Shown here: piece by piece, positions 52,117-55,624 of the stretch | How positions within the stretch are numbered: position 1 is the first letter of the stretch | Layout of the letters: every line of letters begins with the position of its first letter | Assembly: GCA_963804645.1 (NCBI GenBank) | Contig: CAWDRG010000001.1 | Span: forward strand, 96,001 to 160,000 | Source: an uncultured Bacillota bacterium | GTDB lineage: Bacteria > Sysuimicrobiota > Sysuimicrobiia > Sysuimicrobiales > Segetimicrobiaceae | DNA length: 64,000 bases | Direction: 5' to 3' | Translations under genes and position numbers: made by a program | The notes under the pieces: model-generated | What the model saw: the letters and a program-made list of their open reading frames with translations, nothing else | Database searches by the model: none | Told to the model about the DNA's origin: nothing

Positions 52117-52260
52117 AGTCGCCGACATTATAGCACAGGCCTCACGCGGACCATCGCGATGGGAAGCACACGGTAGTGTACGGTGTTGTGTGTAAAAGCA
52201 GGGACCCCAAGAGAGAGGGCGTACCCCCGACCTGACCAACCGAAAGGAGGGATACGCCCG

Positions 52261-53619
52261 ATGGCCAGTGTAGCCGCACTGACCGATCTCACCGTAGCCG
52301 ATTTGTGGAGGGAGGTCAAGGATGAAGCGACCTTGTGGGGCGACGTGTCTCGGGAGACGCTCCGCACGGTCAAGCTCTTGTTGGAGAACCGGATGCACGA
52401 TGAGTTGATCAACCATCTGAATGCTGGCCGGTATACTCGGAATCCGGACCGGCAGGGGTATCGGAATGGCGTCTACCGCCGCCGCTTGGTGACGACGTGG
52501 GGCACCATTCCCGATCTCCATATCCCCCGGGCCCGCCAGAGCGGGTTCCAGCCCTCGGTGCTCGGCCGCTACCAGCGCCGCACCAGCGACGTCAACGCGC
52601 TCGTCCGCGCCGTCTTCCTCGGCGGCCTCTCGACCCGCCAGGTCGGGCCCGTCCTCGCCAAGCTGCTCGACGACGTGGTGAGTCCCACGACCGTCTCGAC
52701 GATCACCCGGGCCTTAGATCAGGCCGCGGCGGCCTTCCACCACCGGACGCTGGGCGATGACTATCAATATCTGTTCCTCGACGCCGTCAGTCTCCGGGTG
52801 AAAGGGCTCGCGGGGAGCAAGCGCCGCTTGATTCTCGTGGCCTACGGCATTCGGCCGACCGGGCAGCGGGACCTGATCGATTTCCGGCTGGCCCGCTACG
52901 AGACCCAAGCCACCTGGGAAGCCTTTCTCACGACGCTGGCCTGCCGCGGGTTGGTGGGGAAACAGTTGCAGCTGATTACGACGGACGGCCAGCGGGGCCT
53001 CCATGCCGCCCTCGATTTGGTCTATTCGGACGTCCCGCGCCAAGCGTGCTGGGTCCATGTCCTCCGCAACGTGGCGAATCGGCTGCGGGTCAAGGACCGG
53101 GAGGCGTGTCTGCGGATGGCGCGCCGGATCTATCAGGCGCCGACCGTCCACGCCGCGAGCCGCCTCCTGCGGCAGTGGGTCCAGGCCTGGCAGGCCACGG
53201 CCCCGGCGGCGGTCGCCTGTCTGACGCGCGAGGAAGACGCCCTGCTCAGCTTCTATGCCGTCGCCGAGGCGGACTGGCGACGGGTGCGCACGACGAACGC
53301 GATCGAACGGGTGTTTCGCGAAGTCCGCCGGCGCACGCGCCCCATGACGTGCTTCACGAACGTGGCCAGCTGTGATCGGATTATCTATGCGATCGTGTAT
53401 GCTCTGAACGTCCGGCAGGCGAGGCGCTCTCTCTCAAGGGAATCTACACATAACTCTAGTATGAGAGTCAACGGTCGGGTGAAAAGGATCTGGACCGTCC
53501 CCCCGGTACCGGTGAGTGGGGCCCGTGATGCCCACTACCCTCCCGGAGGAGGCGATCCAGATGCAGATGACGATCGGAGTGCGCCGGCGTATCGCGAAAC
53601 AGACCCAACGCCGAGCTGA
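52261..53619 (+). CDS. IS256-family transposase with 53-aa read-through extension
   Basis: About 14 substitutions in 399 aa versus copy 1 (counted by eye); the native TGA was displaced by the IS110 insertion. Confidence 0.92.
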   Translation: MASVAALTDLTVADLWREVKDEATLWGDVSRETLRTVKLLLENRMHDELINHLNAGRYTRNPDRQGYRNGVYRRRLVTTWGTIPDLHIPRARQSGFQPSVLGRYQRRTSDVNALVRAVFLGGLSTRQVGPVLAKLLDDVVSPTTVSTITRALDQAAAAFHHRTLGDDYQYLFLDAVSLRVKGLAGSKRRLILVAYGIRPTGQRDLIDFRLARYETQATWEAFLTTLACRGLVGKQLQLITTDGQRGLHAALDLVYSDVPRQACWVHVLRNVANRLRVKDREACLRMARRIYQAPTVHAASRLLRQWVQAWQATAPAAVACLTREEDALLSFYAVAEADWRRVRTTNAIERVFREVRRRTRPMTCFTNVASCDRIIYAIVYALNVRQARRSLSRESTHNSSMRVNGRVKRIWTVPPVPVSGARDAHYPPGGGDPDADDDRSAPAYRETDPTPS

Positions 53620-54856
53620 ACTGACACCGGAGACGTTGATTGTGGCCTTGGATCTGGGCAAACACCAGCACGCCGTATGGGTGACTGATTCGACACGCAT
53701 TCCCCTGGATACCTGGGTGATGCCGACCAGTCCCGAAGGGTTTGCCACTCTCTTCGATCGAACCGCGCGCCTGCAAGAGCGATTCGGGCGCCCCCAGTTG
53801 CTGTTCGCCATGGAACCGACCAGTCACTTTTGGAAGCTGGCCGCACAGCAGATCACAGACCGCGGCGCGCGCTATCGCCTGGTGCAACCGTTGTCCGTGC
53901 GGCGAGCGCGAGAAGAACAGCGGTACACCTGGGCGAAAGGCGACCGGATCGACGCAGAACTGATCGCCACCCTGATTGCAAACGGGACATGGCTGGAGAA
54001 GCAGCTGGAAACGGGACCGTGGGGCACTTGGGAACAACTGGCGCGCACGCGGCTTCACTTGGTGCAGCAGCGGGCCGATATCTTGCGAGAACTGCTGGCA
54101 CTGGTCGAGCTGTGGTTTCCAAATTATCCCTACTTGCCCCACGGAGTGACGCAACCGGGCTCGGTCGCGGTGTTGCGCAGTTGCCCCACGCCGGCGGAGA
54201 TTCAACGCCTGAGCGCCGAGGCGTTTCTGACCCGCGTGCGTGCCCACTATACCGGAGCGCGGTTCCTCCCACGCCGTATCTTGCGGGTCTATCACGCGGC
54301 CAAGCACACCTGGGGCCTGCGAACTGATCGGTTGACCGCCGGCTTGCGCATTCGCATGGCGGTCCGCCGCTACGCATTACTGACCGAGCAGATTGCGACA
54401 ACGGAACGTCACCTCGCCCGATTCTATCGCGCCAGCGGCGCGCGGGCCCTGTTGGAGACCATTCCAGGCTTGGGCGCTGCGGTGGCCAGTACGCTCGTTG
54501 CGCTGATGGGCCCGGTCAATCGCTACGATCGTAGTCGTTGCGTCGTGCGGCTCGCCGGGGCGGAACCGACCGAAAATGCGTCTGGCACATTTCAAGGGCA
54601 CACTCCGGCGAGTCATCGCGGGCGCGGGGCGCTGCGATTGGTGGCCTACCAGGCAGTCCTCGGCCTCATTCGCTGTAATCCCGAGTTTCGAGCCAGGTAC
54701 GATTGGCTAACCACACGACCGAAGCGGCCGCTCCATCAGATCGCGGCCCGCGTCGCGCTGGCCAATAAACTATTGCGTACCATTTATACGATACTTGTCA
54801 CACACTGTCCGTACGATGCTTCCGTGGCGCGCGGGGAGGGGCGGAACTCGCAGTGA
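53561..54856 (+). CDS. IS110-family DEDD recombinase/transposase
   Basis: VALDLGK, AMEPTSHFW and KGDRIDA (DEDD); TIPGLG, AGAEPTENASG (catalytic Ser region) and ALANKLLR; GGAGGAGG RBS before ATG at 53561. Confidence 0.95.
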   Translation: MQMTIGVRRRIAKQTQRRAELTPETLIVALDLGKHQHAVWVTDSTRIPLDTWVMPTSPEGFATLFDRTARLQERFGRPQLLFAMEPTSHFWKLAAQQITDRGARYRLVQPLSVRRAREEQRYTWAKGDRIDAELIATLIANGTWLEKQLETGPWGTWEQLARTRLHLVQQRADILRELLALVELWFPNYPYLPHGVTQPGSVAVLRSCPTPAEIQRLSAEAFLTRVRAHYTGARFLPRRILRVYHAAKHTWGLRTDRLTAGLRIRMAVRRYALLTEQIATTERHLARFYRASGARALLETIPGLGAAVASTLVALMGPVNRYDRSRCVVRLAGAEPTENASGTFQGHTPASHRGRGALRLVAYQAVLGLIRCNPEFRARYDWLTTRPKRPLHQIAARVALANKLLRTIYTILVTHCPYDASVARGEGRNSQ

Positions 54857-55115
54857 TCAGTACCGTCCTGCTAGGGCAGCCCGGCACCGCATCTCTTGGG
54901 CACAACCCGATGTCAAGCATGGGCACGCCCTCCCGCGTACCCCGGATGGCGGCTGGTGGGAACACCCCGTATCGCCACTAGAGTGGGATGGGAGGACGAG
55001 ACTCAAGTGGGACGCGTACAGAAACTGTTTCTCAATACTAGGTTATAGCTCACTAAGCAGGCGGCGAGAAAAAACGGCCCCCTGCGCACGGGGAGACATG
55101 TGTCACCGAGGGGAC
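54857..55115 (+). ncRNA. Putative bridge RNA / seekRNA
   Basis: Target-loop-like unit at 54879-54924: stem GCCCG/TGGGC enclosing ...CATCTCT, hairpin TGGG-CACAA-CCCG and TGTCAAG (reverse complement of target CTTGACA). Donor-complementary ACTAG(AGT) at 54977 and ATACTAG at 55035. Boundaries unknown. Confidence 0.7.
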
Positions 55116-55246
55116 TTGACAAGACTCTCATAGGCTGCTTGACACTACCGAAGCACACCGGCTTAATGCCGTTTTTCCGAGTTCCAGCGCGCGACGTGAA
55201 GAGCAACTGATGGTCGAGCAATTTCCCGGACCGGTATCCTGCATCC

Positions 55247-55624
55247 ATGAAGCGGACGACGATGCCTTGTACCATTTGTGCCACCTCGCTGAATCCCAAC
55301 GGGGTCGCGGTGGGGACTCCGTACCAGGTCAGTAGTGGCAACTGGAACTTTGATATCAAACCGGGGCCCAAGCTTGGAAACGGCGAAAGCAGTTACGACA
55401 CTGTCCTGATCGTCACCTATAAGGATGGGAAGAAGCAATGCCTCATCATGCGCCCCCTTGGGACGGTGGTCTACAACCCGGCCGGAACGGCCGTGATCCT
55501 GACAATTGTGTTCGACGAAGGGGGATCCGTGAAGACGCATCGGGAGGTCTCGTTGACCAATTGGCTTCCGCGGCCCACGGTCACGACGCCCTCTCCGACG
55601 CCCAATCAACCGGGCGGTGACTAG
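55247..55624 (+). CDS. Hypothetical protein or gene remnant, lower GC than host
   Basis: 125-codon ORF with beta-rich composition, no clear RBS and no recognised family. Confidence 0.4.
   Translation: MKRTTMPCTICATSLNPNGVAVGTPYQVSSGNWNFDIKPGPKLGNGESSYDTVLIVTYKDGKKQCLIMRPLGTVVYNPAGTAVILTIVFDEGGSVKTHREVSLTNWLPRPTVTTPSPTPNQPGGD

Follow-up and report, generated by a model that had tools for sequence, protein, structure and literature searches.

Here, we describe an insertion sequence (IS) of the IS110 family that lies nested in an IS256-family element, together with the RNA that probably guides it. Both lie in a 64,000-nucleotide (nt) stretch of contig CAWDRG010000001.1 from an uncultured Bacillota bacterium; we refer to this whole stretch as the window. 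We consider it very likely that positions 54861-55018 encode the bridge RNA, or seekRNA, guide of a single-copy IS110-family element at 53458-55139, which entered the right terminal repeat of the IS256 copy at a shared CT core and left its target unduplicated.

A guide RNA of this type had been proposed from the letters of the window (the original prediction), with its target, its loop and a set of guide strings. A recount by hand found CGCATCTCT, TGTCAAG, GGCTGGT, ACTAGAGT and ATACTAG all present where they had been placed. The type of RNA is borne out by its homology to the RNAs of related elements, by a covariance model and by covariation between guides and flanking sequences in one group of relatives, family C. 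One of the proposed donor guides, ATACTAG, has had to be replaced.

Insertion anatomy, recombinase and relatives

The insertion can be read by comparing interrupted and uninterrupted copies of the host element. This IS256-family element carries an open reading frame (ORF), Transposase_mut (52183-53619), for a Mutator/IS256-type transposase (Pfam PF00872, E 2.9e-83), is bordered by a 9-base pair (bp) target-site duplication (GAAGCACAC at 52163-71 and 55150-58) and has about eight copies in its own genome. The uninterrupted copies in that genome terminate in ...ACACATAACTCTTGACACTACC (L010) or close variants, and these ends place the target, CATAACT-CT-TGACAC (CATAACT-CT-TGACACTACC), inside the right terminal repeat, as had been predicted.

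The empty IS256 end reads ...CATAACTCTTGACACTACC, and the interrupted copy reads ...CATAACT-CT/AGTATG...GGCTG-CT/TGACAC, where slashes mark the joints. The nested element thus interrupts the right terminal repeat of its host between two copies of the CT core, one belonging to the target (53456-57) and one to the element (55138-39), and a target duplication is absent. The segment of the IS256 repeat that contains the target is 24 bp long (AATCTACACATAACTCTTGACACT), and the two junctions read ACTCTAGT on the left (53453-60) and TGCTTGACA on the right (55136-44). Since the left terminal repeat of the host element is without the CTTGACA segment, only the right repeat is a target.

The gene of the nested element encodes a recombinase with an N-terminal DEDD_Tnp_IS110 domain (PF01548, E 5.7e-19) and a C-terminal Transposase_20 domain (PF02371, E 8.7e-17). 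Alternative starts are possible at ATG 53561 or 53567, after GGAGGAGG, and would give a protein of about 430 amino acids (aa). The recombinase scores 171 bits with the NCBIfam model NF033542 ('IS110 family RNA-guided transposase'), whose cut-off is 140. Catalytic-type residues are found at D46, E100, D143, D146 and S356-G357, and the G-x-x-P-x-x-x-x-S-G motif takes the form GAEPTENASG at 348-357. In a phmmer comparison with the solved ISCro4 and IS621 transposases (9t56, 8wt6), only the C-terminal domain aligns (E about 3e-7 to 4e-7).

RNA guidance has been demonstrated experimentally for IS110-family proteins (PMC11208160, PMC11187229). In the present element, the DEDD/serine recombinase (D46, E100, D143, D146, S356) would bind the RNA and use it to synapse the circle junction ...GGCTG-CT-AGTATG... 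with the target, and strands would be exchanged at CT.

Relatives of the element were collected by scanning species-representative genomes and metagenome contigs. Element B (L026/L028/L029) shares 77-83% protein identity with the window's recombinase and has the same donor ends. Family C (L014-L021, L031-L050) shares about 40% identity, and its 3' non-coding regions align with that of the window. Close relatives were found only in the metagenome scan, the species representatives giving only those of about 40% identity, and contigs L025 and L027 were without the non-coding region. Searches of 22 other genomes from the same taxonomic family (E 1e-30) and of 93 others from the class (E 1e-60) yielded no further relatives, and a search of viral contigs also found none.

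The predicted RNA and its guides

The non-coding region at the 3' side of the nested element (54857-55139) is 283 bp long, compared with 58 bp upstream of the ORF. The RNA encoded there would fold as two internal-loop domains within an outer stem: the predicted stem joins 54861-72 with 55006-18 and encloses a target-loop domain (54873-54931) and a donor-loop domain (54932-54992). The original prediction had described a succession of stem, guide, hairpin, guide and stem at 54879-54924, and RNAalifold returned this layout both from 22 homologues and from the window with element B. The latter alignment contains 53 pairs, of which 3 are compensatory and 0 broken.

Homology of the RNA was assessed with a covariance model, R1, built from family C sequences only. 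Its best match in 72 kilobases (kb) is 54864-55001 (26.2 bits, E 7.3e-5), the next-best match in the window reaching 10 bits, and the corresponding region of element B scores 26 bits (E about 7e-5). Pairing in the helices on either side of the loops amounts to 95.5% in 22 sequences, compared with 38-61% in controls with slid partners. Compensatory changes are present in 8 of the 35 pairs of these helices, a level attained in none of 500 shuffles. The donor domain is kept in sequence as well as structure from the window to family C.

The two strands of the target loop flank a conserved hairpin. On the 5' strand, the left target guide (LTG) runs in the same sense as the left target and core on the top strand (CATAACTCT), which it matches at 6 of 9 positions, the count given in the original prediction, with the 4 proximal nt contiguous. 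On the 3' strand, the right target guide (RTG) TGTCAAG complements CT-TGACA, and the CA that follows complements the element's last bases, so that the match to the right junction extends over 9 nt, TGTCAAGCA (54911-19). We would read the loop as follows: its 5' strand would present the LTG in top-strand sense, and 54918-19 would pair with the element's own last bases as handshake bases, at the right junction formed by recombination. In element B, too, 9 nt match the element's own right junction (GCTTGACAT). The LTG block, GCATCTCT in the window and ATGCCCCT in element B, keeps 3 of 8 positions between stems that are identical on either side; no other block diverges so sharply between the two.

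The frequency of such matches by chance was estimated from 4000 dinucleotide-preserving shuffles of a 254-nt non-coding stretch. An antisense match of at least 9 nt over the right-junction core arose in 34/4000 shuffles and one of at least 8 nt over the left-junction core in 43/4000; both junction matches arose jointly in a single shuffle. The original prediction had warned that matches of 7-9 nt can be accidental. Taken one by one, at about 1% each, they can. The same-sense matches of the LTG and of the candidate left donor guide (LDG), with 4-5 contiguous nt, were not above chance in the shuffles when taken alone.

The string complementary to the RTG, CTTGACA, occurs twice, at the right junction and within the element at 55115-21, and the second occurrence is explained by the -35 hexamer of a junction promoter predicted in the right end (see below). 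TGTCAAG (54911-17) might then have been kept for an antisense or long-range RNA contact with the internal copy that regulates the recombinase, rather than as a target guide, and the window and element B do share both strings. Family C, however, retains TTGACA at this place, yet the 3' strand of its loop is of the CUGAUCA type and matches its own right junction. A -35 box that is kept alongside a different right guide argues against 54911-17 existing to pair with the internal copy. Moreover, the CA at 54918-19 lengthens the match to the junction (TG-CTTGACA) and not that to the internal copy (GA-CTTGACA). We give regulation through internal pairing next to no credence.

Family C provides the comparison of guides with flanks that had been suggested as a check of the original prediction. 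Here, a block of 10 nt on the 5' side of the conserved hairpin, with the core at its end, varies with the left flank. When 22 distinct insertions are compared with their own left flanks, the distal 7 nt of the LTG agree in 82 of 154 positions, where 56.4 would be expected, and only 1/20000 shuffles did as well. The RTG agrees with the right flank at 99 of 126 positions over 21 insertions, where 89.8 would be expected, a figure reached by 23/20000 shuffles. Across the family, the fit of the LTG to its own left flank ranges from 4 to 10 of 10 positions, with 10/10 in L038 and 9/10 each in L021 and L044. L021 also has an A-to-C change that is matched between its RTG strand and its right flank. 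Most of family C has AT as its core dinucleotide, L044/L050 have GT, and the window and element B have CT; in each case, the LTG, the RTG and the right donor guide (RDG) mirror it. What these alignments show is covariation of guides with flanks in the family C relatives, not in the window's own clade.

A separate observation concerns where family C inserts. Its insertions fall on boundaries of genes encoded by the opposite strand: of 22 distinct sites, 20 have a left flank that starts with ATG when read on the minus strand, and 17 of 19 right flanks end with TGA, mostly with long open frames, so that the target looks like a CTGATG stop/start overlap. On the strand of the gene, the left end of family C reads GAGGAGCTGATCCT-ATG and would bring a Shine-Dalgarno-like GGAG to 8 nt upstream of the start codon that the insertion displaces.

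In the donor loop, ACTAG (54977-81) complements the core plus AGT, and AGT (54982-84) complements ACT of the left target; as a whole, ACTAGAGT complements the left junction (53453-60), as had been claimed. The first part would pair with the core and the left end of the element, and the second, as handshake bases, with the last bases of the left target. ACTAGAGT aligns with TCCTAT-GTG of family C (core AT plus AGGA complemented) and with CCTAC in L044 (core GT), the position that holds the donor guide and handshake of these relatives. The RDG position thus complements the core and left end in three lineages (TCCTAT/ATAGGA, CCTAC/GTAGG and ACTAG/CTAGT). The LDG had been described as not clearly identifiable, and we agree: GGCTGGT would be a possible, imperfect guide, and it aligns with GGGCTGA of family C (donor GGGATGA), which likewise has one mismatch.

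The right donor guide put forward originally was a different string, ATACTAG (55035-41), which complements the core plus right donor. It is missing from element B, whose donor ends are identical, and is probably a chance match; the homologous RDG is ACTAG at 54977-81. Left-junction matches of at least 7 nt arose in 137/3000 shuffles, in a simulation with the core index one base off, and a 7-mer such as ATACTAG is accordingly weak. Contig L030, which holds a 100%-identical copy of the element, is broken at ATACTAG. We considered this break as a recombination product of the nested element and rejected the idea, as it is an IS630-family (DDE_3, HTH) insertion at TA. The IS630-family element (L030:417-1696), whose 373-aa minus-strand ORF encodes DDE_3 and HTH domains, interrupts ...CAATAC-TA-GG at its TA (window 55039-40) and is absent from the window; its ends are GTGTCCTGAGTC.../...GACTCAGGACAC, and a second copy begins directly after it.

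The donor-loop matches also bear on a simpler type of RNA, a seekRNA that carries the target loop (54873-54931) alone, where the protein reads the donor ends through the 10-bp subterminal repeats and ACTAGAGT and GGCTGGT are incidental or structural. The abundant seekRNAs that co-purify with IS1111 and ISEc21 proteins are short (74-96 nt) and are described by two target matches (PMC11187229), the present element has clear subterminal repeats, and its LDG is imperfect and does not covary. Such an RNA would leave without a role the complementarity of the RDG position in three lineages with differing cores and ends, a left-junction match of 8 nt that few shuffles equalled, and a donor domain conserved from the window to family C. 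We think a target-only RNA unlikely and favour a bridge-type RNA with both loops.

Several observations weigh against this reading. The first group concerns the LTG, which would contribute to target choice and matches the left target at just 6/9. The LTGs of the window and element B fit their own flank at 6/10 and each other's flank also at 6/10 (a hand count on two RNAs), so that programming by the LTG is demonstrated only in the more distant family C. The ideal target near CGCATCT-CT-TGACA in the original prediction, and the promoters it named as possible secondary targets, are putative. Alternative registers in the window and element B, namely shifts of 1-2 nt and the 14-nt 5' strand, gave no fit above 6/9-10 by hand comparison. 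The present site resembles a 'right-half' match, and the insertion may be one; half-match insertion has been reported for IS621 (bioRxiv 10.64898/2026.08.31.748434). In the element's own genome, the 13-mer combining LTG and RTG (GCATCTCTTGACA) has no site within 1 mismatch, 26 at 2 mismatches and 538 in total up to 3. The nested element is single-copy there, and this genome offers no second insertion to confirm the choice of target.

The second group concerns the donor loop and the RNA as a whole. The candidate LDG is mismatched in the core, and no covariation was seen for it in the window or family C. The GGGCUG of family C can pair locally instead, in a hairpin CAGCUCG...CGGGCUG of the R1 structure. 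A covarying helix of 54948-51 with 54973-76 in the window and element B puts GGCTGGT and ACTAGAGT in separate sub-loops, and the donor loop is therefore not a simple internal loop of the IS621 type. The folding energy of the whole non-coding region is not better than that of shuffles (z -0.37), a sigma-70-like promoter upstream of the RNA was not found on the + strand of 53300-55300, and an Rfam scan of 53000-55600, up to E = 1, gave zero matches. The RNA evidence is one contig from one library, which does not give strand or ends and could stem from DNA carry-over.

The unexceptional folding energy, the chance level of the LTG and LDG taken alone and the 1% chance of each single match of 7-9 nt would all suit a region with no guide function, in which the conserved 3' sequence is a protein-binding or cis-regulatory RNA or DNA element (e.g. 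an mRNA 3' structure or end-recognition sites) and the junction matches are accidental. The joint rarity of the two antisense matches (1/4000), the covariation of guides and flanks in family C, the core that covaries in three guides and the demonstrated RNA guidance of the protein family all argue the other way. We regard the absence of guide function as highly unlikely, and the guide RNA described above as the better account of the region.

Predicted junction promoter, a hint of transcription and other features

Coordinates of the features are collected in Table 1.

Table 1. Features of the nested element, its predicted RNA and its host, in window positions
Feature	Positions	Strand	Basis or remark
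Host IS256-family element	52172..55149	+	Pfam; ends and duplication read; uninterrupted copies compared
Nested IS110-family insertion sequence	53458..55139	+	1682 bp; comparison with uninterrupted IS256 ends
Left subterminal inverted repeat TATGAGAGTC	53460..53469	+	Perfect reverse complement of 55123-55132
Recombinase/transposase ORF	53516..54856	+	446 aa from GTG; PF01548 and PF02371
Predicted structured bridge/seek RNA	54861..55018	+	RNAalifold, covariance model R1, helix counts
Metatranscriptomic contig, run X14	54874..55092	not given by contig	Single 219-nt contig, no differences
Left target guide (LTG) CGCATCTCT	54888..54896	+	Homologous to variable 10-nt block of family C
Target-loop hairpin UGGG-CACAA-CCCG	54897..54909	+	Three G-C pairs invariant in 22/22 sequences
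Right target guide (RTG) TGTCAAG and handshake-like CA	54911-17 and 54918-19	+	Complements right junction TGCTTGACA (55136-44)
Candidate left donor guide (LDG) GGCTGGT	54951..54957	+	Against donor GGCTG-CT, one mismatch, in core; weak assignment
Right donor guide (RDG) ACTAG and handshake AGT, ACTAGAGT	54977..54984	+	Aligned with family C donor-guide position
Right end with TTGACA (55116-21) and 17-nt spacer	55116..55139	+	Read in sequence
Right subterminal inverted repeat GACTCTCATA	55123..55132	+	Read in sequence

Circularisation of the nested element would join its right end to its left end, where the core T plus AGTAT (53458-62) would complete a junction promoter, TTGACA-N17-TAGTAT, driving the recombinase gene. 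Element B and each of the 13 distinct right ends listed for family C have the same geometry. Of these 13, 9 have TTGACA itself as first hexamer and 4 depart from it at one position; as second hexamer, TAGGAT occurs 11 times and TAGGGT once, and the remaining end is without a left end on its contig. Junction promoters have been documented for ISEc11 and ISEc21 (PMC11187229).

The right non-coding part of the element also holds, on the minus strand at 55078-55095, a terminator-like hairpin followed by a T-run. It could halt transcription coming into the element from outside, and a comparable G+C-rich hairpin is present in element B.

Of 24 sequencing runs listed, four were aligned to 53300-55300. 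Among those aligned, X14 is the one metatranscriptomic run that contains part of the element. Its contig is a hint of expression only; X14 was without cover over the recombinase ORF, the IS256 part and the flanks, a lack to which we gave no evidential weight. No circle-junction or excision joints were seen in the four runs aligned.

The DNA runs X2 and X12 contain empty IS256 ends, as well as an empty site without the IS256 copy. An X2 contig joins sequence of the 52131-52162 type straight to 55150 onward, so that environmental populations are polymorphic for the IS256 insertion. The soil study X6 yielded a variant with 11 differences over the covered stretches, the same 24-bp target and different outer flanks.

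Two further observations concern the IS256-family copies. Contig 8 of X2 (window 53414-53459) runs along the IS256 end through ...CATAACTCTAG and continues into unrelated AT-rich sequence, GCAAAAATATTTG..., which could represent either an assembly artefact or a different element that occupies this target position. In the genome that contains the window, one more IS256-family copy (G000:C2:163724-164414 + 166539-167122; L010, L011) is split near its own position 760 by about 2.1 kb of other DNA.

Comparison with known systems

The system is a new example of one already known, and no new class of mechanism is opened by it; bridge RNAs had been predicted for most IS110 and IS1111 elements (PMC11208160). 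Its value lies in being a clean natural case of a bridge or seek RNA, in which the donor, the target, the empty site, the guide RNA and the handshake bases can all be identified from the genome. As its target is a terminal repeat within an IS256-family element, one mobile element here disables or marks another. The weak left-guide match bears on the half-match route to off-target insertion, which has recently been proposed (bioRxiv 10.64898/2026.08.31.748434).

Close parallels in mechanism are with IS621 (Durrant et al. 2024, PMC11208160; Hiraizumi et al. 2024, PMC11208158). Both proteins combine a DEDD RuvC-like domain with a Tnp domain that holds a catalytic serine, and both elements share a CT core between donor and target, make no duplication and have an RNA with two loop domains. 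In the published logic of IS621, the 5' strand of a loop pairs with the bottom strand and the 3' strand with the top strand, the core being included in both (PMC11208160). The present RNA follows the same order, with a 5' strand in top-strand sense and a 3' strand antisense to the core and right flank. Handshake bases have also been described for IS621 (PMC11208158), and in both systems they render the 3' strands complementary to the junctions formed by strand exchange.

The differences from IS621 are in layout and size. The RNA lies downstream of the recombinase gene, at the right end, whereas that of IS621 is in the left end, and the recombinase has about 446 aa, compared with 328 aa for the IS621 chain. 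The present element also has 10-bp subterminal repeats, an extra helix in the donor domain, a weakly assigned LDG and a natural LTG match of 6/9, where most natural IS110 elements are reported to have 0-2 LTG mismatches (PMC11208160).

ISEc21 (Siddiquee et al. 2024, PMC11187229) likewise has a seekRNA in which the bottom-strand match is 5' of the top-strand match, a target inside another insertion sequence (the transposase genes of IS3-family elements) and a circular intermediate that makes a promoter. It differs from the present element in having its non-coding region upstream, a transposase of 358 aa and a target that is a coding segment rather than a terminal repeat. The use of another transposon's terminal repeat as a target is shared with IS4321 and IS5075, which target the terminal repeats of the Tn21 family (Partridge & Hall 2003, by its title, as cited in PMC11208160).

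With the IS1111 elements that use seekRNAs (ISEc11, ISKpn4 and ISPa11; PMC11187229), the present element shares a non-coding region downstream of the transposase gene, subterminal inverted repeats and a right-end extension beyond the repeat that exceeds the one at the left end. Subterminal repeats of 7-17 bp and a long downstream non-coding region, the features by which IS1111 elements are recognised (PMC11208160, PMC11187229), are both present here. A downstream non-coding region has, in addition, been noted for some elements of the IS110 group (PMC11187229). The order of the guides is the reverse of that in IS1111 seekRNAs, where the top-strand match is 5' (here, 54888-96 has top-strand sense and 54911-17 is antisense), and IS1111 transposases have 330-350 aa, compared by length with the 446 aa of the present protein (PMC11187229).

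The layout is therefore a mixed one, combining an RNA position and repeats like those of IS1111 with a guide order and protein length like those of IS110. This combination of a 3' RNA and subterminal repeats with IS110 guide order should be of use to specialists. It is conceivable, although we would not yet bet on it, that the present element and family C form a distinct lineage of the IS110 family, a natural intermediate between the two described subgroups. Such a lineage would join an IS1111-like architecture (3' guide RNA, subterminal repeats and right-end extension) with the guide order of IS110/IS621 and recombinases of about 430-446 aa, and its half-match targeting, dominated by the RTG and handshake, would tolerate poor pairing of the LTG in natural insertions. 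If so, it would offer a test case for how much of a bridge RNA the choice of a target really requires.

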